Origin: Candidatus Omnitrophota bacterium | GTDB taxonomy: Bacteria > Omnitrophota > Gorgyraeia > JAHIPI01 | DNA: 45,370 nucleotides | Assembly (NCBI GenBank): GCA_016931215.1 | Contig: JAFGFD010000051.1 | Location: forward strand, 1 to 45,370 | Reading direction: 5' to 3' | Part shown: positions 7,246 to 42,173 of the stretch, piece after piece | Layout: the number at the start of each line of letters is the position of its first letter | Numbering within the stretch: the stretch's first letter is position 1 | Notes under the pieces: model-generated | Database searches by the model: none | Told to the model about the DNA's origin: nothing | What the model saw: only the letters and a program-made list of their open reading frames with translations | Program-made: the position numbers and the translations under genes

Positions 7246-7261
7246 TTAATGAACTGAATAA

Positions 7262-7290
7262 AGTATAACGCGGGCAAATTATTTTGTCAA
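7262..7290 (-). promoter_or_regulatory. sigma70-like promoter of the riboswitch/btu operon
   Basis: The minus strand has TTGACA (rc of 7285-7290), an exactly 17-nt spacer, then TATACT (rc of 7262-7267). This places a TSS a few nt before the aptamer. Confidence 0.5.
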
Positions 7291-7895: not shown

Positions 7896-9689
7896 TCACA
7901 CCTTCAGCGCCGCTATAAACGCCTCTTGCGGTATCTGCACCTTTCCAAACTGTTTCATCTTCTTTTTCCCCTCCTTCTGTTTCTCCCATAATTTTCTCTT
8001 GCGGGTGATGTCTCCTCCGTAACACTTTCCAGTAACGTGTTTCTTCAACGGCTTTACGGTGGAACGGGCAATAATGTTATTGCCTATCGAGGCCTGAATC
8101 GCGACCTCGATCAGCTGTTTAGGTATGAGTTCCTTCAACTTATCTACGATGGCCCTGCCCTTGTGATACGCCTTATCCTTGTGGACAATCGAGGACATGG
8201 CATCGAATCCCTCACCGTTTAAAAGGATATCGAGTTTTACCAGGTCGCTCTCTTTGTAATCGAGAAATTCATAATCCAACGATCCGTACCCTCTTGTAAT
8301 GGATTTGATCTTATCGTAAAAATCTACTATGATCTCGGAGAGTGGTATCACGTATGTAAGTTTAGCCTTATCCTCGCTGAGATAGTCGGTACTGATATAT
8401 TCTCCTCTTTTGGATTCCGCAAGCTGCATAATATTACCTATAGAGTCGGCGGGCGTGATTACATATGCCGCTACGTATGGCTCGCTGATCCTATGTATGA
8501 GATTCGAAGGGGGCATCTTGGAAGGGTTGTCGACGTTTATCGTCTCTCCGGAGGTAGTCTCGATTTTATATATCACGCTCGGTATGCTTATAACTAGATT
8601 TAAATCGTATTCCCTCTCCAGTCTCTCCTGTATTATCTCCATATGCAGAAGCCCCAGAAAACCGCATCTGAAACCAAAACCTAAAGCGGCGGAACTCTCC
8701 GGTTCATAATGGAAGGAGGCGTCGCTGAGGCTCAGTTTATCCATAGCGTCTTTCAACGCCTCGAAATCTTTGCTATTCACGGGGTATATGCCGCTAAATA
8801 CCATAGGTCTCATCTTTCTATATCCCGGCAAAGGCTCATGGGCTTTGTTCGATACGAGCGTAACGGTGTCGCCTATCTCTATCTCGCCCGCGTCCCTTAT
8901 GTTGCAGGTCATATATCCGACTTCTCCGCAGCTCATCTGGTCTACGCTCTTCGGCTTCGGCGTAAAGACACCCAACTCCTGGACTTCATATTCTCTTCCG
9001 TTTCGCATCAGCAAAATCTTGTCGCCCGTCTTGACAACCCCGTTCATTATCCTGACATAGACTATGGCACCTTTGTAAGTATTGTAGCTTGAGTCGAATA
9101 TAAGTGCCTGTAAAGGATGCGAATCGCCCCCGGAAGGCGGAGGAATAGTCTTTACTATACTCTCCAGAATATCCACCACGCCTGTACCCTCCTTGGCGCT
9201 CGCCATTAATATCTTATCTTTGTACCCTCCCAAGAGATTATTGATCTGCGCGATCGTCTTTTCCGGTTCTGCGTTTGCGAGATCGATCTTATTTACGACG
9301 GGTATTATTACGAGATTATGCTCCATAGCCATATAAAGATTCGCGACCGTCTGCGCCTCAACGCCCTGAGCCGCATCGACCACCAACAGCGCTCCCTCGC
9401 AGGCGGCTATGGACTTGGACACCTCATAAGTGAAGTCTACGTGGCCCGGAGTATCTATGAGATTTAGTATGTATTCCATGCCGTCTTTTGCCTTATAAAC
9501 CAGGCGAACTGCGCTCGATTTGATGGTAATGCCTCTCTCGCGCTCGAGCTCCATATCATCAAGCATCTGTTCATGGAACTCGCGTTCGGATATCGCCTTT
9601 GTTATCTGCAATATTCTGTCCGCGAGCGTGGATTTCCCGTGGTCTATGTGTGCGATTATTGAAAAGTTTCTGATTCTATCTTGATCCAT
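7896..9689 (-). CDS. lepA: translation elongation factor 4 (LepA)
   Basis: 597 aa with GTPase motifs [22 protein letters not shown] and NKID. The LepA-specific C-terminal region is present, and the gene sits immediately upstream of lepB. Confidence 0.97.
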
Positions 9690-15820: not shown

Positions 15821-16645
15821 CTACGTTAAATCGAAACGTCTCTTAATGAACCCGCCGACTCTCTGTCCAAGATCCTTGCGGGTCTCATTCTTTCGTATAA
15901 AATCCACTACTGCGCTGCCTACTATGACGCCGTCCGCAATCGAGTTTATCTCCCTCTGCTGCACAGCGTTTGATACGCCAAAGCCGACACATACCGGCTT
16001 GGCGGTGAACTCCTTTATCTTCTTAATGTGAGCCGCTATATCGGCGGGTAATACCTTCCTTGCGCCGGTTACGCCCGTCAAAGAAACATAATATATGAAC
16101 CCCTGCGACCGCTTTGCTATTATCTTTAAACGCTCCACCGTGCTGGTCGGAGAAGCGAGAAATATTACCGAAAATTTCATATTGTTGGAATATCGCACAA
16201 TATCCTCTGCTTCATCCGGCGGAAGATCGGGAAAGATTACGCCGTCTACGCCGCATGAAACAGCGTCCTTCACGAACTTATCCATCCCGTAATGGTAGAC
16301 CGGATTGAGATAGCTCATCAAAACTATGGGGATGTCACTTTTGCTCCTAATAGACTTTACGCGCTTCAGGATCCCCGTCAGGTTTGCGCCTCTCTCAAGG
16401 GCCTTTTCTGAAGATTTCTGTATAGTCAGCCCGTCTGCCATAGGATCGGAAAAAGGCACGCCAAGCTCAACTATGTCGACACCCGCACTCTCCAATGCCA
16501 ATACGATGTCCTCGGTCATTTTAAGCGAAGGGTAACCGGCGGTTATGTACGTAATAAACGCTCTTTTCCTTTTTTTCCTCAATTCTAGAAATTTTTTTTC
16601 TATTCTGTTCATAAAATTTATATCTTCTTTTAGGCCATAGTCCAT
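15821..16645 (-). CDS. trpA: tryptophan synthase alpha chain
   Basis: 274 aa with AGVDIVELGVPFSDPMADG, the YxNP loop and GFGV motifs. It follows trpB. Confidence 0.95.
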   Translation of the reverse strand: MDYGLKEDINFMNRIEKKFLELRKKRKRAFITYITAGYPSLKMTEDIVLALESAGVDIVELGVPFSDPMADGLTIQKSSEKALERGANLTGILKRVKSIRSKSDIPIVLMSYLNPVYHYGMDKFVKDAVSCGVDGVIFPDLPPDEAEDIVRYSNNMKFSVIFLASPTSTVERLKIIAKRSQGFIYYVSLTGVTGARKVLPADIAAHIKKIKEFTAKPVCVGFGVSNAVQQREINSIADGVIVGSAVVDFIRKNETRKDLGQRVGGFIKRRFDLT

Positions 16646-16671
16646 AGTCTATCGTCTATAGACCACAGACT
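16630..16671 (-). repeat. six-unit 7-nt periodic array spanning the trpB-trpA spacer and the trpA start codon
   Basis: mRNA sense reads AGUCUGU GGUCUAU AGACGAU AGACUAU GGACUAU GGCCUAA. The AUG of trpA lies across the unit 4/5 boundary, and it contains the palindrome GGTCTATAGAC. Confidence 0.8.
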
Positions 16672-16674
16672 ATT

Positions 16675-17853
16675 TCAAAACTTAAAATATTCCTTAACGA
16701 TATCGATGTCTTTGTCGCCTCTTCCCGAAAGACATACGATGATACTATCTTTCTTGCTCAGTTTGGGAGCGATTTTAGAGGCGTAATAAATAGCGTGCGC
16801 CGGCTCCAACGCCGGTATAATGCCTTCCATTTCCGAAAGCATCTTAAATCCCGAAAGGGCCTCCCTGTCATTGACGGCAACGTATTCCGCTCGCTTTGTG
16901 TTCATATAATACGTATGCTCGGGCCCTACTCCCGGATAATCCAAACCCGCGCTTACGGAATGCGTGGTCTCGATCTGTCCGTCATTATCCTGAAGCACCG
17001 CGCTCTTAGAGCCGTGAAGTATTCCGATCTTTCCCTTCAAAAGACTTGCCGCATGAGATCCTGAAGAGAGCCCCAAACCGCCTGCCTCCACGCCGATAAA
17101 TGAAACCTTGTCCTTGTAGAAAGGATAAAAAAGCCCTATTGAGTTGCTTCCGCCTCCGACGCAAGCGATAAGACAACGAGGTAGTTTTCCTTCGACATCG
17201 ATTATCTGTCGCCTCGCCTCTCTGCCTATTACGGACTGAAAGTCCCTCACCATCATCGGATAAGGATGAGGACCTACTACCGAACCGAGTACATAATGCG
17301 TAGTATTTATATTCGTAACCCAATCTCTCAGTGTCTCATTTATAGCGTCCTTCAATGTCTTCGAACCGCTAGAAACGGGTATGACCTGAGCTCCCAAAAG
17401 ACGCATCCTGAAGACGTTTATAGCCTGTCTGCGTATATCCTCCTCGCCCATATAAACTGAACACTTGCATCCGAAAAGGGCGGCTGCCGTCGCGGTTGCG
17501 ACACCATGTTGGCCCGCTCCGGTTTCCGCTATTATTCGATACTTCTTCATGCGTAGCGCCAGCAGCAATTGGCCGATCGTATTGTTTATCTTATGAGCGC
17601 CCGTATGTAAAAGATCTTCCCGCTTTAGATATATCTTAGCGCCTCCGAATCTCTTCGTAAGGTTACGGGCGTAGAAAAGAGGGGTCGGTCTACCTGCGTA
17701 TTCCTTGAGATAATATTCCATCTCTTTTCTGAATGATTTCTCCTTCTTGGCCGACATATATTCCTTTTCAAGGTACTGCAAAGCGGACATTAACGTCTCC
17801 GGGACGAACCTGCCTCCGAATTTTCCGAAATATCCCTTTCTATTTGGTATCAT
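16675..17853 (-). CDS. trpB: tryptophan synthase beta chain
   Basis: 392 aa with the PLP-lysine region [15 protein letters not shown] and GGGSN. Confidence 0.97.
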
Positions 17854-24493: not shown

Positions 24494-24512
24494 GGTATTT
24501 GACGGCTATGCG

Positions 24513-24590
24513 AACAGCCAACAGCCCACGGTCTTTCATCCTTACATTCAGGGTTAGCCCCTAAGGAGACAAGCCATGGGCTGTTAAGAA
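24513..24590 (-). other. long nested intergenic hairpin with a tandem AACAGCC heptamer
   Basis: The outer 12-bp stem pairs AACAGCCCACGG (24520-24531) with CCATGGGCTGTT (24574-24585), including one wobble in RNA. Inside it are TCCTTA/TAAGGA and GGG/CCC stems. AACAGCC is duplicated in tandem at 24513-24526. Confidence 0.5.
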
Positions 24591-24620
24591 TAGCAAGACG
24601 TATCTATAAAGATTATGATA

Positions 24621-30205: not shown

Positions 30206-30838
30206 TCATTCTTTGGAGTCAAGGCTTTTTATGTAGCCTATAAGTTCTTTCATCTTATTTTTATCTTTTATGCCCGGAGACCGTTCTATAGAGCTGGATA
30301 TATCTATACCATAAGGCCTTACGGTCTTAACCGCCTCCTCGACGTTATGCAAACCGATTCCGCCCGATAGTATAATCGGCATACCATAAGATTTGGCCTT
30401 AACGGCCAGGCCCCAGTCAAAACTCTTGCCGGTTCCGCCGTACTCATTGGCTGAATATGTATCGAGCAGATATGCAAATACCCTCTTATAGGCAGTGATG
30501 GTCTCGAGCACTGTTTGGTCTTTCATCCTGAATGACTTGATAATTCCGTAGTCGCCTATATCATTGCAGTAGTCCGGCGATTCTTCACCGTGTAGTTGTA
30601 GTGTATTCAAACCGCAATAATCGGCAATCTCCTTTACTTTTTTGGAATCCTCGTTTACAAACACCCCCACGGTCAAAATATAATCATTTTTAATATAATC
30701 GATTATTTCTTTGGCCCTGGAGGGTTCTATGCACCTGGGACTTTTGGCAAAGATAAATCCCAATGCATCGGCGCCGTACCGGACGGCTGACTTTGCGTCA
30801 TCTAAATTGGTAAGACCGCAGATCTTGACTAATTTCAT
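30206..30838 (-). CDS. trpF: phosphoribosylanthranilate isomerase
   Basis: 210 aa with MKLVKICGLT, ADALGFIF, LQLHG and GGTG motifs. Confidence 0.93.
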   Translation of the reverse strand: MKLVKICGLTNLDDAKSAVRYGADALGFIFAKSPRCIEPSRAKEIIDYIKNDYILTVGVFVNEDSKKVKEIADYCGLNTLQLHGEESPDYCNDIGDYGIIKSFRMKDQTVLETITAYKRVFAYLLDTYSANEYGGTGKSFDWGLAVKAKSYGMPIILSGGIGLHNVEEAVKTVRPYGIDISSSIERSPGIKDKNKMKELIGYIKSLDSKE

Positions 30839-30898
30839 ATATATAAGACGTGCTGAAGTCTCGAATCTAACATTTATTAGGATGATTTAGCTATTATT

Positions 30899-31681
30899 TT
30901 AAGAGAGCAAATCCCTGATTTTGCTCCCTATATCATCACTCGCCATCAACGCTTCCCCTATTAGTACGGCATTGATGCCCAACGAAAGCAGATATTGTAT
31001 GTCCTTCCTGTCATGTATCCCGCTTTCCGAGACTATAATCTTGTCCTCCGAAATCATCTTAAGTAATCTCGGGGTCGTCTTGACGTCGACTTTAAGACTG
31101 TGCAGATTCCTGTTATTTATCCCTATTATGGCGCAGCCTGTATTCATGGCCTTTTCCGCGTCCTCTTCGGAATGGATTTCAACCAGGGCATCCATGGAAT
31201 AGCTCTCGCATATAGCCAGAAATCTCTTCAATTCTTCGGGAGAAAGCAGGTCGGCAATCAAAAGGAGAGCATCCGCCCCGGCGCAAACGGACTCATATAT
31301 CTGATATTCGTCTATTACGAATTCTTTTCTGAGGACCGGGACGCTTACATTTTTCTTTATAGCCTCCAGATGCGATAAGCTTCCTTTAAAAAACTTTTCA
31401 TCGGTCAAAACAGAAATGGCAGAGGCACCGTTTGCCTCATAGATAGAAGCTATCTTCAAAGGATCGAAATCTCTTCTGATAACGCCGGCGCTCGGAGAGG
31501 CCTTCTTCACTTCGGCAATGAGGTGTATCTTATGCGGCTTGCTTATGGAATGTTTAAAAAAATTATGTTTTCGCTCGGATTTAAGCCGGTCTGCCTCGTC
31601 TATGACCGCAGCTATAGGGGTCTGGGCCTTTTTGCCGTCTATCTCCTTCTTCTTTTCTTCGATAATCTTATTTAAAATCAT
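30899..31681 (-). CDS. trpC: indole-3-glycerol phosphate synthase
   Basis: 260 aa with IAEVKKASPS, ISVLTD..FF.GS and IGINNRNL motifs. Its start has a 4-nt overlap with the trpD stop. Confidence 0.95.
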   Translation of the reverse strand: MILNKIIEEKKKEIDGKKAQTPIAAVIDEADRLKSERKHNFFKHSISKPHKIHLIAEVKKASPSAGVIRRDFDPLKIASIYEANGASAISVLTDEKFFKGSLSHLEAIKKNVSVPVLRKEFVIDEYQIYESVCAGADALLLIADLLSPEELKRFLAICESYSMDALVEIHSEEDAEKAMNTGCAIIGINNRNLHSLKVDVKTTPRLLKMISEDKIIVSESGIHDRKDIQYLLSLGINAVLIGEALMASDDIGSKIRDLLS

Positions 31682-32691
31682 CCGTTGCTCTCTTCGCGAA
31701 GTTGATTCAATTTCTCCATTACCTTTCCCGAGTCAATACAATCTGCCGCCATTCGAACACCATCTTCGAACCCGCTACATTTTCCCGTCATCTTAAGGGC
31801 CGCCGCTGAATTCATCAAGACCATATCTCTGCGCGGACTCTTGTCCTTGCCGCGCAAAATGTCAAGGACCACTTTTTTATTGTATTCGACGTCTCCTCCC
31901 CTGATCTGGTCGATGGAACCCTCATTCAACCCAAAATCAGCAGGCTTGACAAAATAAGTCCTGACCTTGCCGTCTTTAAGTTCGGATACCTTTGTCTCGC
32001 CGCTTATTGATATTTCGTCAAGCCCGGCCATCCCGTGCGCCACTATGGCCTTGGCCGTACCCAATCTATTCAAGGCCCCGGCCATGACCTCCGTCAATTC
32101 GGGTTTATATACCCCCAGAATCTGCTGGTTGGCACCGGCCGGGTTTGACAATGGGCCCAAAATATTGAAGATGGTCCTCGTCTTCAATTCTCTTCTGACG
32201 CCCATTACATTCCTCATGGCCGGATGAAAGTTTTTCGCGAATATAAATCCGATGCCCACACCATCAATCAGACCGGCGACTTTTTCGGGTGTAGTCTCTA
32301 TATTTACGCCGAGGGCCTCCAGGATGTCTGCACTTCCGCATTTCCCCGTAAAAGAACGGTTTCCGTGCTTAGCGACTCTCAATCCGCAAGCCGCCAGAAC
32401 GAGAGCGGCCATAGTAGAGATATTTACGTCGTTGACGGAAGCCCCTCCCGTACCGCAGGTATCTATGAGGCCATCGCCCTTGACTCTTACTTTGGTAGAT
32501 TTTCTTCTCATAATCGTTGCGGCAGCGGCTATTTCTTCCGAGCTTTCGCCTTTCTCCTTCAAGGAAATGAGAAACTTCTTCATCTCCTCTTGCGTTGCCT
32601 TCCCGCTCATGATTTCATCGAAGACTTGAATCATCTCTTCTGTGGTGAGATTTTCTCTTTTTATTAGTTTTTCTATGGCGTCTTGAATCAT
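31678..32691 (-). CDS. trpD: anthranilate phosphoribosyltransferase
   Basis: 337 aa with DTCGTGG, KHGNRS and FNILGPLSNPA motifs. Confidence 0.95.
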   Translation of the reverse strand: MIQDAIEKLIKRENLTTEEMIQVFDEIMSGKATQEEMKKFLISLKEKGESSEEIAAAATIMRRKSTKVRVKGDGLIDTCGTGGASVNDVNISTMAALVLAACGLRVAKHGNRSFTGKCGSADILEALGVNIETTPEKVAGLIDGVGIGFIFAKNFHPAMRNVMGVRRELKTRTIFNILGPLSNPAGANQQILGVYKPELTEVMAGALNRLGTAKAIVAHGMAGLDEISISGETKVSELKDGKVRTYFVKPADFGLNEGSIDQIRGGDVEYNKKVVLDILRGKDKSPRRDMVLMNSAAALKMTGKCSGFEDGVRMAADCIDSGKVMEKLNQLREESNG

Positions 32692-32694
32692 CTC

Positions 32695-32743
32695 TGTGTC
32701 TCCTGTCTATAGTCTATTGTCTATAGTCTATAGTCTATAGACC
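32695..32743 (-). repeat. seven-unit heptanucleotide array (GTCTATA / mRNA AGACUAU) filling the trpG-trpD spacer
   Basis: mRNA sense reads GGUCUAU AGACUAU AGACUAU AGACAAU AGACUAU AGACAGG AGACACA, then GAG-AUG(trpD). The last two units contain the SD AGGAG. Confidence 0.9.
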
Positions 32744-32748
32744 ATTAC

Positions 32749-33321
32749 CTAAATCGACAAAAAGTTCTTAAGTATTTTTTTCCCCTCTCCCGTAAGTATG
32801 GATTCGGGATGAAATTGCACTCCATAGACGTCGGATTCTTTATGCCGTACCGCCATTATCTCCTCTGCCTCCGTCCATGCAGTCACCTCCAGGCAATCAG
32901 GCAGCGTCTCCCGCTCAACAACGAGAGAGTGATAACGGGTTGCCTCAAAAGGACTCTTTATCTCTTTGAATATATCCTTTCCGTCGTGAAAGATCATGGA
33001 TGTCTTACCGTGCATGAGACGCTCGGCCCTGACAATTCTGCCGCCGAACACCTCGGCAATCGCCTGATGGCCAAGGCATACCCCCAGAATTGGGACCGTC
33101 GAGGAAAACGCCTTTATAACCGACTCCGATATTCCGGCATTCGAAGGATAGCCAGGCCCCGGAGAGATGATGATTTTGGCGGGCCGCAGCTTCGCTATAT
33201 CTTCAAGGCTTATCTTATCGTTTCTGTACGTAGTCAAATCAGCCCCTAGCTCACCAAGATATTGCACCAGATTATAGGTAAAAGAATCGTAATTATCGAT
33301 AACGAGTATCATCGTTATCAC
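32749..33321 (-). CDS. trpG: anthranilate synthase component II (glutamine amidotransferase)
   Basis: 190 aa class-I GATase with the GVCLGHQ catalytic Cys box and FHPES. Confidence 0.93.
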
Positions 33322-33339
33322 TCTCGTCTTTCTTATTGG

Positions 33340-34803
33340 CTATACCGTCTCCTCAATGGCCTTTATCAAGGCCATAGCCTTGTTCAACGTCTCCTTATAC
33401 TCTTTTTTAGGCTCGGAGTCTGCGACGATTCCGGCGCCCGCCTGAATGTACGCCTTCTTCTTCTTGACCAAAATAGTCCTGATTGTAATACAGGTGTCGA
33501 CGTTCCTTGAAAAACTGAAATAACCTACGCAACCGGCGTACGGCCCCCTCTTGACGTTCTCAAGCTCGTCTATAATCTCCATGGCGCGAATCTTGGGCGC
33601 GCCCGTGACCGTCCCGGCAGGAAACGACGCCCTCACGACATCATACTCATTGCAGGTCTTAGACAATGTACCTACTATATCGCTAACGATATGCATCACA
33701 TGCGAATACTTCTCGATCCTCATCAATTCCTGCACTTTGACGGTATCGAACTGCGAAACCCTGCCCACGTCGTTACGCCCGAGATCTACGAGCATTATAT
33801 GCTCAGCCCTCTCCTTAGGATCGGCGAGAAGTTCTCTCTGGAGTTCCTCGTCCTCCTTAGCATCCTTCCCTCTGGGCCTGGTACCGGCTATAGGCCTTAA
33901 TTCTATCTTCCTGTCTTCGCAACGTACCATAATCTCCGGCGAAGAACCTATGAGTTTCATATCCTTGAACTTCAAATAATACATGTAAGGAGACGGGTTT
34001 ATGGACCTAAGATTTCTGTAAATTCCGAAGGGGTCTTTTTTGCCCAACTCCGCCTCTATGCGCTGCGATAAGACAACCTGTATTATGTCTCCGTTCTTTA
34101 TGTATTCCTTTGCCTTGTCTACGATATCCGAAAATTTCTTCTCCGTAAAGTTCGAGCTTATCTTCAAATGTCCCTTCGAGCCTTTCGCCTTCTTACTCTT
34201 TATGTTTGCGGATAGTTGTTTTTCTATGCTCTTTATCTTTTTTACGGCGCTATCGTATGCCTTGACCGGATCTCCTTGAATGAGTATATTTGAGACTATC
34301 TTTATCTTATGAAGCATATGATCGAATATAAGAATGGTGTCCGTCAGCATAAATACAGAATCCGGGATGCCGAGATCATCTGTGTTGTTGTCGGGTATGT
34401 CTTCGAAAAAGCGGACCATGTCATATCCTATATATCCCACGAGTCCGCCGCAAAAACGCGGAAGTCCTTTTATCTTTACAAATTCGTATCTCTCCATGAA
34501 CCGCTTCATCTCGTCCAATGGGTCCGTCTTTGTCTTGTAGCGGCTCACTTTACTGTTTTCTATGACTTCGATATTCTTACCTTTTGTCTTGAATATTATG
34601 GAAGGGTCTGAGCCCAGAAATGAGTAACGGGCAATCTTTTCTTCCCCCTCAACTGACTCCAGCAGGTATGAATAATCGCCCTTGTCGATCTTAATAAAAC
34701 TCGAGACGGGCGTCTCCAGGTCTGCGGCTATCTCTTTGTAAACGGGTATAAGATTGCCCTTCTTCGATAATCTGATAAATTCATTTTTACTCGGATAAAT
34801 CAT
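33340..34803 (-). CDS. trpE: anthranilate synthase component I
   Basis: 487 aa with the LLESVEG motif and the chorismate-binding C-terminal region (GTRPRG, FPAGTVTGAPK.RAMEII, GPYAG.VGY). Confidence 0.95.
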   Translation of the reverse strand: MIYPSKNEFIRLSKKGNLIPVYKEIAADLETPVSSFIKIDKGDYSYLLESVEGEEKIARYSFLGSDPSIIFKTKGKNIEVIENSKVSRYKTKTDPLDEMKRFMERYEFVKIKGLPRFCGGLVGYIGYDMVRFFEDIPDNNTDDLGIPDSVFMLTDTILIFDHMLHKIKIVSNILIQGDPVKAYDSAVKKIKSIEKQLSANIKSKKAKGSKGHLKISSNFTEKKFSDIVDKAKEYIKNGDIIQVVLSQRIEAELGKKDPFGIYRNLRSINPSPYMYYLKFKDMKLIGSSPEIMVRCEDRKIELRPIAGTRPRGKDAKEDEELQRELLADPKERAEHIMLVDLGRNDVGRVSQFDTVKVQELMRIEKYSHVMHIVSDIVGTLSKTCNEYDVVRASFPAGTVTGAPKIRAMEIIDELENVKRGPYAGCVGYFSFSRNVDTCITIRTILVKKKKAYIQAGAGIVADSEPKKEYKETLNKAMALIKAIEETV

Positions 34804-34854
34804 ACGCTCTTTTTCTATTATTCTGATTTAATCGATGGTCGATAGTTTTATTTC

Positions 34855-34913
34855 GGTTTATGGTTCACGGTGTAAGGTTAAAGGGGATTTGTCTTTTCCA
34901 TAAACCGTAAATC
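34855..34913. repeat. heptad-built hairpin element, copy A (GGTTnAC family)
   Basis: The plus strand reads GGTTTAT GGTTCAC GGTGTAA GGTTAAA GGGG-ATTTGTCTTTTC-CATAAACC GTAAATC. GGTTTATGG pairs with CCATAAACC as a perfect 9-bp inverted repeat. Confidence 0.75.
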
Positions 34914-34921
34914 AAACTTTT

Positions 34922-34949
34922 ATACTATTCCCTATACGCTATGCGCTAA
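34922..34949 (-). repeat. four-unit AUAG-N3 heptad array immediately after the hisI stop
   Basis: mRNA sense reads UUAGCGC AUAGCGU AUAGGGA AUAGUAU, starting at the first base after the hisI UGA. Confidence 0.8.
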
Positions 34950-35330
34950 TCAATACACCTTCTCCGGATCGAATATCCTCTCTTCGACAATACGCGAGGA
35001 GCCATCCTTGTCAAGCCGTCTAAAATAACAACTGAAATAACCTTTATGGCAGGCGGCAACCTTCTGTTCCACCTTTATAAGCAGGGACTTGCCTTCGCAG
35101 TCCATAAATACCTCTTTTAAAAGTTGTATATGGCCGGATGTCTCTCCTTTCAACATAAGACGCCCCTTGGACCTGCGGTAAAGGTATATCTTTCCGGATT
35201 CCAGCGTCTTCTCAAGGGCAACTCTGTTCAGATAACAGAGGGTAAGGACCTTTCCCGTCTTTTGGCACTGAATGACGGCCGGTACAAGGCCTTTTTCGTC
35301 AAACTTAATCTGCGCTATAAAATCTTCCAT
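34950..35330 (-). CDS. hisI: phosphoribosyl-AMP cyclohydrolase
   Basis: 126 aa with GLVPAVIQ, the SGH region and the DCEG...C...C zinc-site pattern. There is no fused HisE domain. Confidence 0.92.
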   Translation of the reverse strand: MEDFIAQIKFDEKGLVPAVIQCQKTGKVLTLCYLNRVALEKTLESGKIYLYRRSKGRLMLKGETSGHIQLLKEVFMDCEGKSLLIKVEQKVAACHKGYFSCYFRRLDKDGSSRIVEERIFDPEKVY

Positions 35331-35340
35331 CGGTTACACC

Positions 35341-36105
35341 TCATAATCTTACGTTAACACCTCGGCCATGTAGATACTCTTTGGTCTCTCGTATTGTAAA
35401 TTCCTTGAAATGGAATATGGAGGCCGCCAGAGCAGCCTCCGCCTTGCCCTCTGTGAGGACTTCGTAAATATGTTCCAGATTGCCGCAACCGCCGCTTGCA
35501 ATCACAGGGACGCTTACGGCCTCGCTGACTCGGCGGGTAAGTTCTATATCATAGCCCGACTTTGTTCCGTCAAAATCCATACTCGTCAGCAGGATCTCGC
35601 CTGCGCCGAGGGAGACCGCGGTCTTGGCCCATTCAACGGCGTCTATTTTAGTGTTGTCCCTTCCTCCGTGTATGTAAACTTCCCATCCGGAAAAACCCGA
35701 GGTCTTTTTCTTTGCGTCTATAGCCACCACTATGCACTGACTGCCGAATTTTTCCGAAGCTTCCTTTACGAACTTTGAATCTTTGACGGCGCTGGTATTG
35801 ATCGAGACCTTGTCGCAACCTGCATTCAATAACTCCCTGATGTCGTTTATGTCCCTGATGCCTCCTCCCACCGTAAACGGCATAAAGACCGTTTCGGCGA
35901 CACGCCTGACTACATCTATCATAATCTTTCTCTTCTCGTGGGAAGCCGTTATATCAAGAAATACCAGCTCATCGGCAAATTCGTTATCGTAAATCTTAGC
36001 CTGCTCAACGGGATCACCGGCATCACGCAGTTTTACGAAATTGACGCCTTTTACAACCCTTCCCTCTTTCACGTCAAGGCATGGTATTATTCTCTTCGCA
36101 AGCAT
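35341..36105 (-). CDS. hisF: imidazole glycerol phosphate synthase, cyclase subunit
   Basis: 254 aa with [23 protein letters not shown] and the SGG..G motif. Confidence 0.96.
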
Positions 36106-36818
36106 ATGCTAATGGCCTCTCTTAAATCTATGGCGCCTTCATAAAGCGCCTTGCCGATTATTACCCCGATCAGATTCTTCCTGTCCAGCTCGCTGAGTCT
36201 CTTTATGTCATCTACTGACGATATTCCGCCGGCCACGATAACGGGCAGATCGATATCGTCCAAGAGCCCTTCCAATGTCTCAAGATTCGGACCTCTCAAT
36301 GTCCCGTCAACGCTTACGTCGGTATATATCATGGACTTGACGCCCATGCCCTTTATCTTTTGAGCAAGTTCAAGGGCATCCAAGCCCGAAGATGCAGTCC
36401 ACCCCTGGATCATAACGATCCCTCTGTTGGCGTCTACGGAGACTATCACCTTCTCCTTATACTTCTCTACCACAGCTACGATGAAATCCAGGTCTTCGAC
36501 CACCTTAGACCCCAAGATAACCTTGGAAACGCCTATATCGAAAGCCTTGTCAATGACATCCATATCCCGTAAACCGCCGCCGAACTGAATCGGAATATCT
36601 ACGCTCCTAATGATAGCGGCAACGGAGTCCATGTTCTTAGGGACTCCTTCAAGGGCGCCGTCTAGATCGACCACGTGAAGCATCTCGGCGCCTTGACTAT
36701 ACCATAGCTTAGCTATCTCGGACGCATTAGAGGAATAGACCTTGAGATCATCATATCTGCCCCTTGTGAGCCGGACGACATTGCCGTCTTTCAAATCTAT
36801 TGCAGGTATTATCTTCAT
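36087..36818 (-). CDS. hisA: 1-(5-phosphoribosyl)-5-[(5-phosphoribosylamino)methylideneamino]imidazole-4-carboxamide isomerase
   Basis: 243 aa with [25 protein letters not shown] and VIVAGGISS motifs. Confidence 0.95.
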
Positions 36819-36825
36819 ATGAGTC

Positions 36826-37434
36826 TTATATTTTCAAGAAATTAAGAAGAAACTTTAGGCCTACGGTTTGACTCTTTTCGGGATGAAACTGAGTGGCGAA
36901 TATATTTTCTTTCCATACCATGGAAGTGAAATTCAAACCGTAATCTGTCGTTGCCGCCTTTATCCCACCATGAACGGGCTCAACGTAATATGAGTGTACA
37001 AAATAAAAAAATGATCCGTCTGATATGCCCTTGAACAACGGACAACCTTGCCGCTCCGTCTTCACCTGATTCCAGCCCATGTGCGGTACTTTGAGCCCGC
37101 GGCCGCGAAACTTCACTACGTCACCTTTTATGATCCCAAGGCCTTCCGAACCCCCGTCTCCTTCTTCGCTCTTTTCAAAAAGGACCTCCAGCCCCAGACA
37201 TATCCCAAGATAGATCTTACCCTTAGAGATCTCCTCTTTCAGGGGTTCTATGAGCCCAAGCTCATTCATTGAGTCTAAGGCATCCTTGAACGCACCTACC
37301 CCCGGCAAGACTATCTTGTCGGCCTTCTTCAAGTCCGCGGGCCTGTTCGTTATCTTTGCGGGGCCGCCTAAATATTTAATGGCGTTTGAGACGCTCCCCA
37401 AATTACCGACTCCGTAATCGATAACCGCTATCAT
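36826..37434 (-). CDS. hisH: imidazole glycerol phosphate synthase, glutaminase subunit
   Basis: 202 aa with IAVIDYGVGNL, GICLGLE (catalytic Cys) and QFHPEKS motifs. Confidence 0.95.
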   Translation of the reverse strand: MIAVIDYGVGNLGSVSNAIKYLGGPAKITNRPADLKKADKIVLPGVGAFKDALDSMNELGLIEPLKEEISKGKIYLGICLGLEVLFEKSEEGDGGSEGLGIIKGDVVKFRGRGLKVPHMGWNQVKTERQGCPLFKGISDGSFFYFVHSYYVEPVHGGIKAATTDYGLNFTSMVWKENIFATQFHPEKSQTVGLKFLLNFLKI

Positions 37435-37455
37435 TATTTAAGCCTGATCTCCGTT

Positions 37456-37483
37456 TTTGACTATGGTCTATAGACGATGGGCT
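37456..37483 (-). repeat. four-unit heptad array with a GGTCTATAGAC core in the hisB-hisH spacer
   Basis: mRNA sense reads AGCCCAU CGUCUAU AGACCAU AGUCAAA. It shares the 15-nt GGTCTATAGACGATrG core with the trpB-trpA junction. Confidence 0.75.
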
Positions 37484-37496
37484 ATTATTTAGTTCA

Positions 37497-37565
37497 GGGT
37501 TAAAGGGTTACGGTTTATGATAAAGAAAAAAATCCCGTGAACCGTTAACCATGAACCGTGCACCG
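37497..37565. repeat. heptad-built hairpin element, copy C (inverted relative to A and B)
   Basis: The plus strand reads GGGTTAAA GGGTTAC GGTTTAT GA-TAAAGAAAAAAATCCC-GTGAACC GTTAACC ATGAACC GTGCACC. Its reverse complement aligns with copies A and B. Confidence 0.75.
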
Positions 37566-37570
37566 ATCTT

Positions 37571-38185
37571 TTATTCGTCGGCAATGACACCTTTGGTAGA
37601 GGGGATATCTTTCCTACGGGCATCTATCTGAGTCGCCTGATCCATGGCAATGCCGAATGCCTTGAATACGGCCTCAAGTACATGGTGCAGATCGGAGCCC
37701 GAAGAGACCTCCACATGCAGATTCATTCCGAGTTTTTTGGCAAAGCTGTCGAGAAAATCCATGCCGTCTTCGAAGGTGTAACCTTCCTCGGCGCCCAAGG
37801 CGGGAAACGCGAGTCCCGGAAGAAGAAGTTTCTCAAACGCATATCGATTGCTGATATCCACGACTACTTTTGCCCTGGCCTTATCCATGGGTACTTCGGA
37901 GGCGCCAAACCGCTTAATGCCCCTGCAGTTCCCAAGCGCCTTTTTGAAGGCAAGGCCCAATGATATTCCCACATCCTCGTTGGTGTGGTGCATATCCACT
38001 TCGAGATCGCCCTTCGCTTTCAACGTCAGGTCAAACAAGCCGTGAAACGCGAATAGGTCCAGCATGTGGTCCAGAAAACCTATGCCTGTCTTTACGTCGG
38101 CCTCACCTTTGCCGTCGATATTAAGGCTACCTTTTATATCCGTCTCTTTTGTCTTTCTGCTTATTTCAGACGTCCGCTTAGCCAT
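37571..38185 (-). CDS. hisB: imidazoleglycerol-phosphate dehydratase
   Basis: 204 aa with RKTKETDI, GIGFLDHML and HH..E motifs. It is monofunctional, with no phosphatase domain. Confidence 0.95.
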   Translation of the reverse strand: MAKRTSEISRKTKETDIKGSLNIDGKGEADVKTGIGFLDHMLDLFAFHGLFDLTLKAKGDLEVDMHHTNEDVGISLGLAFKKALGNCRGIKRFGASEVPMDKARAKVVVDISNRYAFEKLLLPGLAFPALGAEEGYTFEDGMDFLDSFAKKLGMNLHVEVSSGSDLHHVLEAVFKAFGIAMDQATQIDARRKDIPSTKGVIADE

Positions 38186-38213
38186 ATTTATCCTCTTACA
38201 TTGCCTCTTTATA

Positions 38214-38278
38214 GGTTTACGGTTAGCGGTGTACGGTTAACGGGGTTATTTCTTTCCGTTAACCGATAACCATTAACC
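38214..38278. repeat. heptad-built hairpin element, copy B
   Basis: The plus strand reads GGTTTAC GGTTAGC GGTGTAC GGTTAAC GG-GGTTATTTCTTT-CC GTTAACC GATAACC ATTAACC. CGGTTAACGG pairs with CCGTTAACCG as a perfect 10-bp stem. Confidence 0.8.
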
Positions 38279-38286
38279 AATCTTTT

Positions 38287-38307
38287 TCTCTATCCGCTAT
38301 ACGCTAT
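38287..38307 (-). repeat. three-unit AUAG-N3 heptad array just after the hisD stop
   Basis: mRNA sense reads AUAGCGU AUAGCGG AUAGAGA, beginning 3 nt after the hisD UAA. It is nearly identical to the array after hisI. Confidence 0.8.
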
Positions 38308-38310
38308 CTT

Positions 38311-39531
38311 TTATTTAAACCTCACATTTACAGATTCAAGATGTTTCGGGAGGCCCTCCATGTTTGCGACCTTCTCCAGGCTTCCTCTTACCTTTTCCAG
38401 ACCTTTCTTCGTATAGTTTATGATGTGAGAACTCTTTATGAAATCATTAAGGCCCAGTCCGGAGAAGAAACGCGCCGTTCCTCCTGTGGGCAACACGTGG
38501 CTTGGACCCGCTACATAATCCCCAACTGCGGTCGGTGAATAAGGGCCTATAAATATGGCGCCTGCGTTTTTAATCCTCTTGAGCACCTTCTGCGGACTCT
38601 TTATCTGTATCTCCAAGTGCTCGGGTGAAAGCTCATTGATTACGTCGGATGCCTCATCCATATTTTTAGTGAGTATTATATATCCTTTCTCCACTTCCTT
38701 CTTCATGACCTTGGCAAGCTTCTTGGACGGAGTCACCAGCACGGCAAGGCCTCCGTAATGCTCGCCTTGGGCCATGAGGTCGGCCTTTACATAATCAAAA
38801 TTGCTGTGTTGATTGGCAAGTACTATAACCTCGCTCGGGCCGGCGAGCATGTCGATATCGCAATAGCCGAACACTTGCCTCTTCGCTTCGGTGACATATT
38901 GATTTCCGGGCCCGACTATCTTATCGACTTTTGGTATCGTCTTGGTGCCGAACGCCAGCGCCCCTATAGCCTGGGCGCCTCCGACTTTGTATATCTCATC
39001 GACTTTAAGAAGATTTGCGACGACGAGTATGTGAGGATCTACGCTCTTATATTTATTGGGAGGAGTGGCCAGGACTATCCGCTTGACACCCGCCAGTTTT
39101 GCCGGTAATACCGTCATATAGACGCTTGATATCAGTGGGACCGTACCGCTCGGTACATATACGCCGACGATATCGATCGGCTGATATTTCTCCCCGAGGA
39201 CAACGCCGTCGTCATCGACTATCTTCCAGGATCTCTTCAGCTGTTTTTTGTAAAACCTGCTTATGTTATCTATTATGACTTTTAAGGTACTTACGAAATT
39301 GGGGCTTATATCCTGATAGGCGCCGTTTGTCTCGATCTCCGTTACCTTCAACTCTTTCGGAGTCAACTTGACCTTGTCAAACTTGCGGCTGTACTTAACG
39401 ACGGCGTCATCGCCGCCCAGCCGCACGTCCTCCAATATTTTTTCTACGCTAAAGGCAAGACGCCTATTTTTAACGAAACCCCTGCATCTGAGTTTTTCAT
39501 ACTGTTTACCGGTCTTCTTGATTATCTTCAC
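38311..39531 (-). CDS. hisD: histidinol dehydrogenase
   Basis: 406 aa with ILEDVRLGGDDAVVKYSRKFD near the N-terminus and the QGEH, SPEHL and GDY.AGPSHVLPT motifs. It has a GTG start in a 4-nt overlap (GTGA) with the alaS stop. Confidence 0.93.
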   Translation of the reverse strand: MKIIKKTGKQYEKLRCRGFVKNRRLAFSVEKILEDVRLGGDDAVVKYSRKFDKVKLTPKELKVTEIETNGAYQDISPNFVSTLKVIIDNISRFYKKQLKRSWKIVDDDGVVLGEKYQPIDIVGVYVPSGTVPLISSVYMTVLPAKLAGVKRIVLATPPNKYKSVDPHILVVANLLKVDEIYKVGGAQAIGALAFGTKTIPKVDKIVGPGNQYVTEAKRQVFGYCDIDMLAGPSEVIVLANQHSNFDYVKADLMAQGEHYGGLAVLVTPSKKLAKVMKKEVEKGYIILTKNMDEASDVINELSPEHLEIQIKSPQKVLKRIKNAGAIFIGPYSPTAVGDYVAGPSHVLPTGGTARFFSGLGLNDFIKSSHIINYTKKGLEKVRGSLEKVANMEGLPKHLESVNVRFK

Positions 39532-42173
39532 TTGTCAAGCTCCTCTTGAACAATGTTTGCTACCGATTTAAGCGCCCCTTCCAACTTTTCGACATCCTTT
39601 CCCCCCGCCTGGGCAAAGTCCGGCCGCCCGCCACCCGAGCCGCCGACCATCATAGAAATCTTTTTTACTATATTGCTGGCGTCGAGTCCTCTGCCCACAA
39701 GATCCCTGCTGACGGCACATACCAACGTCACCTTGCTCTTTGCCCCGGAACCCAAGACCACTATAGAGCTGCCCAATTTGTTCCTAAGCGCTTCTGCGGT
39801 GATCCTCAAATTTTCAATGTCGGCATCCAGCTTCGTCGAAATCACCTTTATTCCGCTAACTTCCTGGGAGCTTCCCGCGATGCTCTCAAGGTCCAATCGG
39901 TTCTTGCCGCTGTTCATATCCGCGATATCCTTCTCCAGGCTCTTGACCTTGGCCGAAAGATCCTTCAAGGCCTTAACCACGTCTCCCTTTTGCGTGCGCA
40001 GGATGTCAGCCGAATCCCGTATCCTCTCCTCGTCGTCCTTGACGCTACGAAAAGCCATCCTACCCGTAAGCGCTTCTATACGCCTGATGCCGCTTGCTAT
40101 GGAACCCTCGCCGACTATCCTGAATAATCCTATTTGCCCCGTATGCTCCAAATGAGTGCCGCCGCACAATTCCTTGGAATAATTGCCTATGGAGACCATG
40201 CGAACTCTATCCCCGTATTTCTCGCCGAATAGCGCTATCGCCCCCTTCTTCTTGGCCTCCTCTATCTTCAGCTGTGACGAGGAAACATTGGTATTCGCCC
40301 TGACCAATTCGTTCACCAATTCCTCTATCCTGTCCAGCTCCCTCTTCTCGACGGCTTTAAAATGTGTAAAATCGAAACGCAGCCGTTCTCTCGCAACAAG
40401 CGAGCCGGACTGCTTTATGTGTCTTCCGAGGACTTCCCGCAGGGCGTAATGCAGAAGATGCGTCGCGGTATGATTCCTGGCTATGTCCAGACGGCTATCC
40501 TCGTCAACTATCGCCGTAAGGCGCATCTTCTCTTTTACGCTGCCCTTGGCGATCTCTCCGAGGTGCACAATTATATTTCCTACGCGCTTGGTGTCGTCGA
40601 TCGTGATCTTTGTGTTTTTGGACGCCATGTGCCCGGCGTCTCCAATCTGGCCACCGGCTTCTCCATAAAACGGCGTCTTGTCCAAGACCAATTCTATCCT
40701 CGCGCCTGCCCTTGCGCTCTTTACCCTTTTGCCGGAGTAGACAATGGCCTGAACCGTTGCTTCCGATCGGTATTTTTTATAACCCGTAAATATGCTCGGT
40801 TTCAGGCTCTGTGAAAGCTTCTTCAACAAATCCTCATCCTTCGATTCGTCAAATATCGAGCTTTTTATCTTAGACTTGGCTCTCGCCAGGTCACGCTGCC
40901 TATCCATTGCTTTTTTGAAACCTTTTTCGTCCAATTCATAGCCTTTTTTTTCGGCAAACTCCCTTGTCAGCTCTACCGGAAAACCATAGGTGTCATACAA
41001 GCGGAAGATATCCTCGCCGGGGATGGTGCGCCTTTTACCGTTCTTGAGTTTAGAGATTATGTCTTCGAGCAGTTTCGTGCCTTCTTCCAGGGTGCACCGG
41101 AATCTCTTCTCTTCATTTAGAATTACGTCCGCGATGCCTTCCCTCATGGATTCAAGCCCAGGGTACGGGTCCCTCATGGTCTTTGTTACGGCCGGCACCA
41201 GCTTATATAAAAATGGGAGCTCTATGTCAAGTTCCTTTCCGAAACGAAATGCCCTCCTTATGAGCAACCTCTCCACGTAACCCCTTTCTTCATTTGAAGG
41301 GAGTATACCGTCGGCAATCATGAAACACACGGCCCTAATATGATCCGCTATGGCATTGACCAGGTATGACTTCTCGCCTTTTTTCATACCCGCGGACTCG
41401 CATATCTTATTTACTATCGGCAAAAATATGTCTGTCTCAAAGTTGGTCCGCACATTCTGCATGACACCGGCCATCCGCTCCAGGCCCATGCCGGTATCTA
41501 TGTTCTTGCTCTTCAAAGGCTCAAGATTATTCTTGCCCGTCCGATTGAACTGGGTAAACACCAGATTCCAGACCTCGACAAACCTATTGCAGCTGCAGGA
41601 CGGCTCGCAATATTTGGTCCCGCATCCGACATCTTCGCCCTGATCGTAAAATATCTCGCTGCATGGCCCGCAGGGCCCGTTCGGACCGTCCTTAGGGGCA
41701 TTGGCAGGCCAGAAATTATCATCGGCGCCGTATCTCTTAATCTTATATTCCGGCACCCCCACCCCGTCCCTCCAAATCTTATATGCCTCATCATCATCTT
41801 TATAAACAGATACCCACAGCCTTTCCGGATTCACCCTGAGCTCCTCGGTCATAAACTCCCAAGCCCAAGTGATGGCCTCCTTCTTAAAATAGTCACCGAA
41901 TGAAAAATTACCCAACATCTCAAAAAAGGTATGATGGCCGGCGGTCTTGCCCACCTTATCGAGGTCTCCGGTCCTCAGGCATTTCTGACTCGATGTGGCA
42001 CGTCTGTAGGTTATGTTGCGGCCCATGAACTGGTCTTTGAATTGATTCATGCCCGCGCCGGTAAAGAGCACGGAAGGGTCGTTCGCAGGAATTAAAGAAT
42101 CACTTGAGACGATCTTGTGCCTCTTTGACTCAAAAAACTTTAAATATTTCGTCCTTATCTCATTTGTAGTCAT
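39528..42173 (-). CDS. alaS: alanine--tRNA ligase
   Basis: 881 aa with FTGAGMNQFK and FFEMLGNFSFGDYFK class-II motifs. It also has the editing-domain HTATHLL...CGGTH and a C-terminal DHHA1-like GGGGRPDFAQAGG. Confidence 0.97.
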   Translation of the reverse strand: MTTNEIRTKYLKFFESKRHKIVSSDSLIPANDPSVLFTGAGMNQFKDQFMGRNITYRRATSSQKCLRTGDLDKVGKTAGHHTFFEMLGNFSFGDYFKKEAITWAWEFMTEELRVNPERLWVSVYKDDDEAYKIWRDGVGVPEYKIKRYGADDNFWPANAPKDGPNGPCGPCSEIFYDQGEDVGCGTKYCEPSCSCNRFVEVWNLVFTQFNRTGKNNLEPLKSKNIDTGMGLERMAGVMQNVRTNFETDIFLPIVNKICESAGMKKGEKSYLVNAIADHIRAVCFMIADGILPSNEERGYVERLLIRRAFRFGKELDIELPFLYKLVPAVTKTMRDPYPGLESMREGIADVILNEEKRFRCTLEEGTKLLEDIISKLKNGKRRTIPGEDIFRLYDTYGFPVELTREFAEKKGYELDEKGFKKAMDRQRDLARAKSKIKSSIFDESKDEDLLKKLSQSLKPSIFTGYKKYRSEATVQAIVYSGKRVKSARAGARIELVLDKTPFYGEAGGQIGDAGHMASKNTKITIDDTKRVGNIIVHLGEIAKGSVKEKMRLTAIVDEDSRLDIARNHTATHLLHYALREVLGRHIKQSGSLVARERLRFDFTHFKAVEKRELDRIEELVNELVRANTNVSSSQLKIEEAKKKGAIALFGEKYGDRVRMVSIGNYSKELCGGTHLEHTGQIGLFRIVGEGSIASGIRRIEALTGRMAFRSVKDDEERIRDSADILRTQKGDVVKALKDLSAKVKSLEKDIADMNSGKNRLDLESIAGSSQEVSGIKVISTKLDADIENLRITAEALRNKLGSSIVVLGSGAKSKVTLVCAVSRDLVGRGLDASNIVKKISMMVGGSGGGRPDFAQAGGKDVEKLEGALKSVANIVQEELDK

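Follow-up and report, generated by a model that had tools for sequence, protein, structure and literature searches.

A heptanucleotide tract in the trpG-trpD spacer of a Candidatus Omnitrophota contig: probably an inserted and slippage-expanded repeat element, and very unlikely a tryptophan switch

The DNA analyzed here, a 45,370-bp contig of a Candidatus Omnitrophota bacterium (JAFGFD010000051.1; hereafter the window), has every one of its genes on the minus strand, and between two of them, trpG and trpD, lies a spacer that consists for the most part of phased heptamers. An earlier note, made from the letters alone, had drawn attention to that tract and had offered two readings of it: either a site for a tryptophan-responsive, oligomeric RNA-binding protein resembling TRAP, or a tandem repeat of the type known as short tandemly repeated repetitive (STRR) sequences, with no specific role in trp expression. 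The junction is composed of the following features:

32749-33321, minus strand: trpG, the glutamine amidotransferase component of anthranilate synthase (Pfam GATase, E = 6.2e-62)
31678-32691, minus strand: trpD, anthranilate phosphoribosyltransferase (Pfam Glycos_transf_3, E = 3.8e-90, plus Glycos_trans_3N)
32692-32748, minus strand: trpG-trpD intercistronic spacer, 57 nt, an insertion relative to the ATGA overlap of relatives
32695..32743, minus strand: phased heptamer tract of 7 units, 1 inverted, 4 good direct, and 2 decayed
32705..32740, minus strand: core tandem array (Tandem Repeats Finder: period 7, 5.1 copies, 93 % matches, score 65)
32733..32742, no strand: 10-bp palindrome GTCTATAGAC, the head-to-head junction of inverted and direct units
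32700..32704, minus strand: trpD Shine-Dalgarno (SD) sequence AGGAG, ending 8 nt before the AUG and formed where the two decayed units meet

The trpG stop TAG occupies positions 32751-32749 and the trpD start ATG positions 32691-32689, and the N-terminus of the TrpD of the window aligns with those of its relatives. Read directly, the spacer mRNA is GUAAUG GUCUAU AGACUAU AGACUAU AGACAAU AGACUAU AGACAGG AGACACA GAG, and then AUG, the first 6 nt (GUAAUG) being non-repeat. In DNA, the units from 32743 to 32695 are GGTCTAT AGACTAT AGACTAT AGACAAT AGACTAT AGACAGG AGACACA, followed by GAG ATG; the seven phased heptamers that the earlier note had seen filling the spacer were thus accurate in sequence and coordinates, with the refinement that only about five of the seven are good copies, the last two (AGACAGG and AGACACA) being decayed. 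GGTCTAT, the first unit, stands in inverted orientation, which gives rise to the palindrome at 32733-32742 that had been described as built from the unit; the SD, AGGAG at 32704-32700, does lie within the last units, spanning two degenerate ones. Triplets of the form (G/U)AG, which had been said to recur with 4-5-nt spacers up to the trpD AUG, were found at -46, -39, -32, -25, -18, -11, and -3, counted from the A of that codon: UAG in the first five places and GAG at -11, so that six triplets stand in exact period 7 and the seventh follows 8 nt onward, for a total of 7 triplets with spacers of 4 nt and one of 5 nt.

The array exceeds chance by far. When no more than 3 mismatches are allowed, the sequence ATAGACNATAGACNATAGAC is matched 13 times in the window, where chance would give 0.05 matches, and GTCTATAGAC occurs three times (at 16654, 32733, and 37466) against 0.00 expected; among periods 6 to 12, period 7 alone produces tandem arrays of at least 3 units in the window, and in the best 21-nt stretch of the trpG-trpD array the period-7 identity is 14/14. 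The predicted fold of the spacer RNA is weak (minimum free energy -18.5 kcal/mol over 101 nt, z -2.5, centroid -8.7) and leaves both the trpD SD and the AUG unpaired. That the array, or its number of copies, was created by the mis-assembly of metagenomic reads is extremely improbable: tandem repeats do assemble poorly, and several arrays of the census described below end contigs (e.g., loci L055 and L027), but the present array is only 49 nt long, shorter than a read; is interrupted by the unique variants AGACAAU and AGACAGG; and is located mid-contig (45 kb) between intact genes with correct termini, while the independent assemblies of relatives carry the same class of element.

As relatives we took the fetched loci with a matching alaS-his-trp-SBP-GH94 gene order (SBP, solute-binding protein), a metagenome scan with TrpD having given 10 loci. 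The closest TrpD relatives are 70 % identical, and the named ones are annotated 'MAG: Candidatus Omnitrophica/Omnitrophota bacterium' (MAG, metagenome-assembled genome). In four of six relatives that share the his-trp gene order, namely L004, L005 (= L006/L007), L010, and L011, the trpG-trpD junction is a 4-nt ATGA overlap (-4); L001 has 4 nt between the genes, L008 and L014 have 5 and about 27 nt, both without repeats, and L003 has 115 nt, so that together with the 57 nt of the window the junction ranges from -4 to 115 nt. The L003 insert belongs to a different heptamer family (GTTTACC ... ACGGTNC), and the array of the window is absent at that junction in all eight relatives examined; the conservation of array and phase in relatives, which the earlier note had proposed checking, is accordingly lacking. 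Since most relatives have the ATGA overlap, the ancestral state of the junction is translational coupling by overlap, and the 57-nt spacer of the window is, from the comparison of these sequences, a lineage-specific insertion.

The gain and loss of such elements can be followed between L003 and L004, which are 99.5-100 % identical in all aligned blocks and encode identical TrpD proteins: the indels between the two fall exactly where, at hisI-trpE and at trpG-trpD, heptamer elements are located. Variation between close strains, which the earlier note had regarded as telling against a TRAP-like site, is therefore present in these related elements. Wide differences in length are seen at the other his-trp junctions of the relatives too, and it is heptamer, and sometimes octamer, arrays that fill them.

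Heptamer repeats were observed inside genes as well. A perfect array, (AAACCGC)5.4, lies within trpE at L003 8455-8492 and L004 2094-2131, where it encodes KTANRKPQTANRK in the variable TrpE linker, at about amino acids (aa) 200-213; at the matching place L001 has an (AAGACCG)n array (8564-8609), and the window, at about 34160-34210, only a faint trace, from which sequences heptamer slippage seems to shape a loop of the TrpE protein in 21-nt steps. A 45-nt indel inside the solute-binding-protein gene also distinguishes L003 (13170-13214) from L004 (6686-6690); the L004 gene is called as two open reading frames (ORFs; 245 + 170 aa) and may therefore be a pseudogene or reflect a difference in assembly.

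The window itself contains siblings of the trpG-trpD element as well as other heptamer arrays in neighboring spacers:

16613..16674, minus strand: sibling element in the trpB-trpA spacer, reading AAUAGUC UGUGGUC UAUAGAC GAUAGAC UAUGGAC UAUGGCC, with a palindrome around GTCTATAGAC
37459..37485, minus strand: short sibling element in the hisB-hisH spacer, of about 2+2 units with the core GTCTATAGAC, flanked by IGPD and GATase
37435..37570, minus strand: hisB-hisH spacer, with an inverted CGGUUNA heptamer hairpin and the short ATAGAC element
34804..34949, minus strand: hisI-trpE spacer, with (UAGCGNA)n directly 3' of the hisI stop, plus a CGGUUNA/UNAACCG array in inverted arrangement
38186..38310, minus strand: hisD-hisB spacer, with (AUAGCGN)n directly 3' of the hisD stop and a CGGUUNA/UNAACCG hairpin

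Beyond their repeat units, the three elements that contain GTCTATAGAC have little in common. The trpB-trpA element is flanked by the Pfam matches PALP (TrpB, 16675-17853) and Trp_syntA (TrpA, ORF 15821-16645), and two of its units read UGG instead of UAG. According to the database record P0241, in which TrpA is 263 aa long, the real start of that gene would be the ATG at 16612 and not the one at 16645; two in-frame ATGs occur inside the repeat units of the element. This trpB-trpA pair lies 13 kb from trpEGDCF, with glycoside hydrolase genes in between.

Several of these elements are strong hairpins, namely the trpB-trpA element (-20.4 kcal/mol, z -5.2), the hisD-hisB spacer of the window (-28.8 kcal/mol, z -3.2), and that of L001 (-30.1 kcal/mol, z -6.2), the inverted CGGUUNA/UNAACCG arrays being what forms the hairpins of hisD-hisB, hisB-hisH, and hisI-trpE. 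Another family, composed of GGTCACA(A) units around a GGTATAC center, makes up an 80-nt hairpin found at L003 4578-4657, L003 7769-7840 (inverted), L004 10445-10525, and L139 1276-1311, at several junctions including the hisI-trpE of L003; its copies are 95 % identical and present in both orientations, so that at least some heptamer elements do disperse. One of two strains that are 99.5-100 % identical lacks it, and in its behavior it resembles a mobile element of tandem units similar to the MITEs (miniature transposable elements with inverted repeats) or the repetitive extragenic palindromes (REPs). We considered the trpG-trpD tract as the remnant of a mobile heptamer hairpin of the REP/MITE type, whose stem-loop would protect the trpE-trpG message from 3' exonucleases or mark a processing site. 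In favor of that possibility are the strength of the sibling and neighboring hairpins, the dispersed GGTCACA(A) copies of L003, L004, and L139, and the composite stop-(NATAGAC)n-loop-(GTCTATN)n-start arrays of other phyla. As with REPs, bacterial interspersed mosaic elements, and MITEs, these are short palindromic intergenic elements, located in operons and just past stops, in both orientations and polymorphic for insertion, and able to act as stabilizers of mRNA. The units, however, are tandem and of 7 (sometimes 8) nt, in contrast to a unique 20-40-nt palindrome; no transposase or RAYT was noticed among the annotated genes of the window; and at trpG-trpD direct units predominate (1 inverted versus about 6 direct), in a copy that folds weakly and has little hairpin potential. 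Its near-perfect direct units suggest local slippage over transposition for most of the array, and we consider the REP/MITE origin unlikely.

The trpB-trpA junction was compared in eight relatives, in which the spacer ranges from -4 to 92 nt. In half of them (L139, L142, L143, and L144) the genes overlap or are separated by at most 2 nt, whereas ATAGAC-like units make up 11 nt in L138, and L137 carries (UUAGUCG)3-4, L140 (UAGGNNG)5 plus (AACCGAR)6, and L141 a period-8 array. A conserved UAG-period-7 array at this place, which had looked promising after four relatives, was rejected when four more proved to have either no spacer or the period-8 array; to judge by these sequences, trpB-trpA is a hot spot of independent arrays and not a conserved site.

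To place the unit in a broader context, we scanned ATAGACNATAGACNATAGAC (ATAGACN x3) against one genome per species and found at least 120 stretches, compared to about 17 expected by chance. Among the matches listed, the carriers are Chloroflexota, Bacteroidota, Gemmatimonadota, Planctomycetota, Verrucomicrobiota, Armatimonadota, Deinococcota, Acidobacteriota, Fibrobacterota, Bacillota, Gammaproteobacteria, and Omnitrophota, the longest arrays have 24 units, and of 133 arrays, 118 do not lie deep within an ORF. The cultured Bacteroidota carriers include Dyadobacter fermentans, Dyadobacter sp. BE34, Sphingobacterium daejeonense, Pseudopedobacter beijingensis, and Mariniflexile sp.; the triple unit was also observed in 22 viral contigs (IMG/VR, loci L145-L166), several of which are giant-virus MAGs (GVMAG). 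Over 1.0 Mb of carrier loci, period 7 accounts for 363 arrays, versus 83 for period 5, 61 for 6, 30 for 8, 8 for 9, 0 for 10, and 1 for 11. The 140 flanking proteins fall into 199 Pfam families, with no trp or his enzyme among the 25 most frequent listed, and in two other Omnitrophota genomes the ATAGACN arrays are at fabH-fabD and beside a T2SSE ATPase. An enrichment at amino-acid biosynthesis beyond the contig of the window was thus discarded, being absent in other phyla, with the arrays of relatives also at junctions of genes unrelated to amino acids. The arrays frequently form a composite, stop-(NATAGAC)n-50 to 80 nt-(GTCTATN)n-start, of which the loci L017-L136 furnish examples at L094 6910-7059 and 7607-7714, L088 3516-3671, L109 715-888, and L055 1012-1143; the sense arrays begin, among the matches listed, a median of 3 nt past the upstream stop.

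These properties recall the long simple-sequence repeats (LSSRs), reportedly described by Mrazek et al. in 2007, and the cyanobacterial STRRs, said to go back to Mazel et al. in 1990. The strict STRR units are CCCCAGT, TTGGTCA, and CAACAGT, in heterocystous cyanobacteria. In the summary of Mrazek 2007 that PMC4679880 provides, heptanucleotides are the commonest LSSRs in the genomes of many bacteria, and a polymerase footprint of 7 nt, on which slippage would take place, is proposed. Rehm et al. (2015) described the heptamers of Xanthomonas (GGGAATC) and Nostoc (GGGGA(C/T)T) as intergenic, mostly between co-oriented ORFs, lying about 28 nt from the upstream versus about 160 nt from the downstream ORF, present also inside operons (e.g., pecE-pecF), and variable between relatives (PMC4692102). 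The arrays reported here are similarly head-to-tail 7-nt units with a strong period-7 excess, intergenic, mostly between co-oriented ORFs, near the end of the upstream ORF and within operons, and their length and sequence vary between relatives; but ATAGACN is not among the described units, the Omnitrophota constitute a new host phylum, and the arrays are often head-to-head palindromes or hairpins. Given that unit and that host, the tract is STRR-like and not a member of STRR1-3, and as the unit is not G-rich, a role in quadruplex formation does not apply. A literature search for the unit sequence ATAGACN found no paper with it in the library searched. In sum, the array has most of the general properties of the heptamer-repeat kind, with the unit, the host phylum, and the head-to-head arrangement being new.

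The tract is probably an intergenic heptanucleotide simple-sequence repeat of the STRR/LSSR kind, the second of the readings of the earlier note being the one favored by the heptamer families at other junctions and by the unrelated flanks in many phyla. The course of events that we consider probable is that a palindromic heptamer element became inserted between trpG and trpD, one arm was expanded by slippage, and SD-driven initiation replaced the coupling, with no sensing of tryptophan. The AGACUAU arm would have grown to about five copies by slipped-strand mispairing, leaving the middle units near-perfect and the 3' edge decayed; the insertion would have abolished the termination-reinitiation coupling of trpD to trpG; and trpD would be translated from its own SD, AGGAG, arisen—as we infer—through decay of the two final units. 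In the message, the array would constitute a largely unstructured A/U-rich intercistronic spacer, whose effect on expression, if any, would be constitutive (uncoupling, or perhaps a processing or standby site) and not tryptophan-responsive. Since the tract is one copy of a fast-changing heptamer family present at gene junctions here and in many phyla, a tryptophan-sensing RNA switch is very unlikely.

A number of points nonetheless weigh against this account. The three elements with GTCTATAGAC are all at trp or his junctions (trpB-trpA, trpG-trpD, and hisB-hisH), and when a repeat-bearing spacer is defined by at least 11/14 period-7 matches in a 21-nt window, 5 of the 11 trp/his junctions bear repeats versus 1 of the 26 others (Fisher p = 0.005, post hoc and from one contig), which concentration is the one observation that misfits random scatter. 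The scatter that the earlier note had proposed to look for by a census is seen in other phyla, beside unrelated genes; in the 45-kb contig, trp/his junctions account for 5 of the 6 spacers with repeats. In co-oriented gene pairs, furthermore, the matches listed show ATAGAC 44 times in the mRNA sense versus 18 in the antisense (p = 0.001), a polarity that purely neutral slippage does not predict. The sense ATAGACN unit contains TAG in all three frames, which property may bias the insertions that are tolerated and so explain the polarity in part. UAG in exact period 7 is the register read by a known oligomeric RNA-binding protein, HutP; no strain at least 99 % identical to the window was found for a comparison of the copy number of the trpG-trpD array, and an exact look-up of the TrpD of the window gave no match; and for this organism the census and the search for binding proteins covered the 45-kb contig alone. 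The trp/his concentration in the contig and the polarity across phyla give some slight credit to an RNA-binding protein that would read triplets in period 7. A three-frame stop module as a general rule was rejected, in that ATAGACN is biased to the stop-containing sense (41 vs 15), whereas the other heptamer families are not (34 vs 21, no significant orientation bias). Away from the trp/his genes a single spacer bears repeats, at 24494-24620; it has hairpin arms with AACAGCC and GGCUGUU, about 2 units per arm, and is flanked by a TPR-containing protein of 766 aa and a 326-aa protein without a Pfam match.

The concentration at trp/his junctions and the register of the triplets raise the question of a protein that responds to an amino acid, namely a ring- or hexamer-forming one that, with a HutP-like register (NAG-N4-NAG-N4-NAG) or a TRAP-like logic, would occlude the trpD SD depending on tryptophan or histidine. 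TRAP, a protein of the Bacillota whose sites are conserved, requires 9-11 (G/U)AG triplets with 2-3-nt spacers; in Bacillus, the TRAP (mtrB) sites are in the trp leader and in the trpG, trpP, and ycbK mRNAs. The present array resembles such sites in having repeated (G/U)AG in a trp-operon mRNA, the last overlapping the SD, and in the idea of translational repression by occlusion, but it has only 7 triplets with spacers of 4-5 nt versus 2-3, a spacing that had already been recognized as outside the TRAP optimum. A tblastn search with the Bacillus subtilis MtrB in the window and all fetched loci detected no match, the best E being 1.2, so that the mtrB/TRAP-like gene proposed as a search target was not encountered there. 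A TRAP site was therefore rejected for the number and spacing of its triplets, the lack of a tblastn match, and the absence of conservation at the orthologous position.

HutP and TRAP are alike in being oligomeric, amino-acid-activated proteins that read repeated triplets, and HutP reads NAG triplets 7 nt apart, contacting U498, U505, and U512 of the hut RNA (PMC2425495; for the register also PMC12591593). Three NAG triplets with spacers of about 4 nt (period 7), as in the hut RNA of B. subtilis, are indeed present in the array, and by analogy of register HutP would be a better analogue than TRAP. HutP, however, reads two sets of three NAG around a terminator stem, 12-20 nt apart, whereas here 6-7 are contiguous, and the arrangement of two NAG sites flanking a GC-rich intrinsic terminator is not found, there being no terminator in or near the spacer. 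Promoter-like or terminator-like sites were not found in the spacer, the counts across the region being equal to those of shuffles, and Rfam at gathering thresholds gave only a cobalamin riboswitch (7080-7268) in the window, with no T-box or trp leader. The tblastn search with HutP, whose query sequence was verified against PDB, gave no match in the window or the fetched loci, and a word-seeded search returned 768 family members, among which all those bearing an organism name in the 120 matches listed were Bacillaceae. A HutP site was hence also rejected: its register fits, but the search of the window and the fetched loci gave no match, a terminator and conservation are both absent, and the named family matches among those listed are from the Bacillaceae.

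To the six (U/G)AG of exact period 7, which extend from -46 to -11 with the last of them within the SD, and to the matching period of the HutP contacts can be added, in support of an amino-acid-responsive reader, the enrichment of repeat-bearing spacers at trp/his junctions and the UAG-period-7 arrays, with differing spacer sequence, at the trpB-trpA of the window, L137, and L140, with a two-unit one in L138. Across 200 kb of Omnitrophota loci, (TAG-N4)3 occurs 27 times in sense and 16 in antisense versus 1.5 expected. These arrays are located as well at CBM30-hypothetical, hypothetical-GH2, and M50-rpe junctions, and none was found in the approximately 37 kb sampled from the L003/L139 genome, both of which results argue against such a reader, as do the lack of conservation at trpG-trpD, the absence of a trpB-trpA spacer in 4 of the 8 relatives and its period of 8 in one, the two trpB-trpA units with UGG, the missing terminator on which an antiterminator could act, and the outcome of the TRAP and HutP searches. 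We regard it as very improbable, and the tryptophan-responsive TRAP-like oligomer of the earlier note, its first reading, as without support, with the trp/his concentration and the HutP-like register leaving it a slight probability. In a more general form, the UAG-N4 arrays at the stop-start gaps of trp/his genes might, by analogy with HutP, be platforms for an oligomeric NAG-reading protein in that register, setting either the coupling or the access to the SD, which idea we hold to be highly doubtful.

A less specific binder deserves somewhat more credit, in the form of an abundant single-strand RNA-binding protein (Csp-, S1-, or CsrA-like, with a footprint of about 7 nt) that would coat the heptamer arrays just past stops or ahead of starts and tune, in many genes, the initiation of translation, the coupling, or the stability of the mRNA, without responding to tryptophan. 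TAACTGA repeats lie just upstream of starts in marine Beggiatoaceae, cyanobacteria, and Bacteroidetes, and the binding of S1, Csp, or CsrA has been proposed for them without proof (MacGregor 2015; PMC4679880). The likeness to those repeats extends to the 2-6 direct heptamer copies within a few nt of starts, overlapping the place of the ribosome-binding site; to the scattered phyla and the unrelated, even essential, genes; and to the stop codons in forward orientation and the postulated post-transcriptional binder. The unit, however, is another; the good units are here followed by a canonical SD; one and the same genome contains several unrelated unit families; and many arrays are paired as inverted repeats. 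A coating protein would agree with arrays that are polar with respect to transcription and adjoin stops and starts, a positional rule matched by TAACTGA (PMC4679880) and by the GGGAATC/GGGGAYT repeats (PMC4692102); with the fact that the trpG-trpD array runs into the SD; and with reporter work in Nostoc that hints at effects of heptamer repeats near the start codon and at a partner protein (bioRxiv 10.1101/2022.06.06.494920). But the units differ widely within a genome and between relatives (AUAGACN, UAGCGNA, CGGUUNA, GGUCACAA, AACCGAR), so that one sequence-specific protein cannot read them all; the arrays stand in both orientations, often as inverted pairs; their presence or absence between 99.5-100 % identical strains argues against an important role at a given gene; and no candidate protein was identified. 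We accordingly judge the coating protein to be rather unlikely, and continue to prefer the inserted and slippage-expanded repeat. The ATAGACN arrays of fixed polarity past stops in a dozen phyla could, for their part, be read by a conserved factor, though this too is highly doubtful.

The remaining trp genes of the cluster are as follows, identified through Pfam:

33340-34803, minus strand: trpE
30899-31681, minus strand: trpC
30206-30838, minus strand: trpF

Upstream of trpE are hisI, hisF, and hisA and, further upstream, hisH, hisB, hisD, and alaS (Pfam), so that from 30206 to 42173 the order on one strand is alaS-hisD-hisB-hisH-hisA-hisF-hisI-trpE-trpG-trpD-trpC-trpF, an apparent his-trp supraoperon fused to alaS that is kept in all the relatives examined; the alaS-hisD and trpD-trpC junctions of the window are 4-nt overlaps. 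Elsewhere in the window, the cobalamin riboswitch (RF00174, 7080-7268, minus strand, 89.6 bits) is upstream of a gene at 5042-6952 that aligns with the genes of TonB-dependent receptors (Plug / TonB_dep_Rec) at the matching position in L138 and L139, and a 439-nt gap (1068-1506) contains a small unannotated ORF of about 80 aa, starting ATGATAACGAGGATAGGG, followed by a terminator-like hairpin with a T-run.

With the failure of the reading as a trp regulator, the direct importance of the tract is low. It would be an example of how a simple repeat can break the ancestral ATGA coupling of trpG and trpD, with a new SD provided by decayed repeat units, and the contig and its relatives display heptamer-built elements gained and lost between 99.5-100 % identical strains. 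ATAGACN, polar in its placement relative to genes, is shared by a dozen phyla or more, including cultured carriers suited to testing, and bears on questions dating from 1990 and 2007 as to the 7-nt preference of bacterial tandem repeats and their possible binders. If a NAG-reading protein were to prove true, it would be convergent with TRAP and HutP, in a different phylum and acting on biosynthetic operons.

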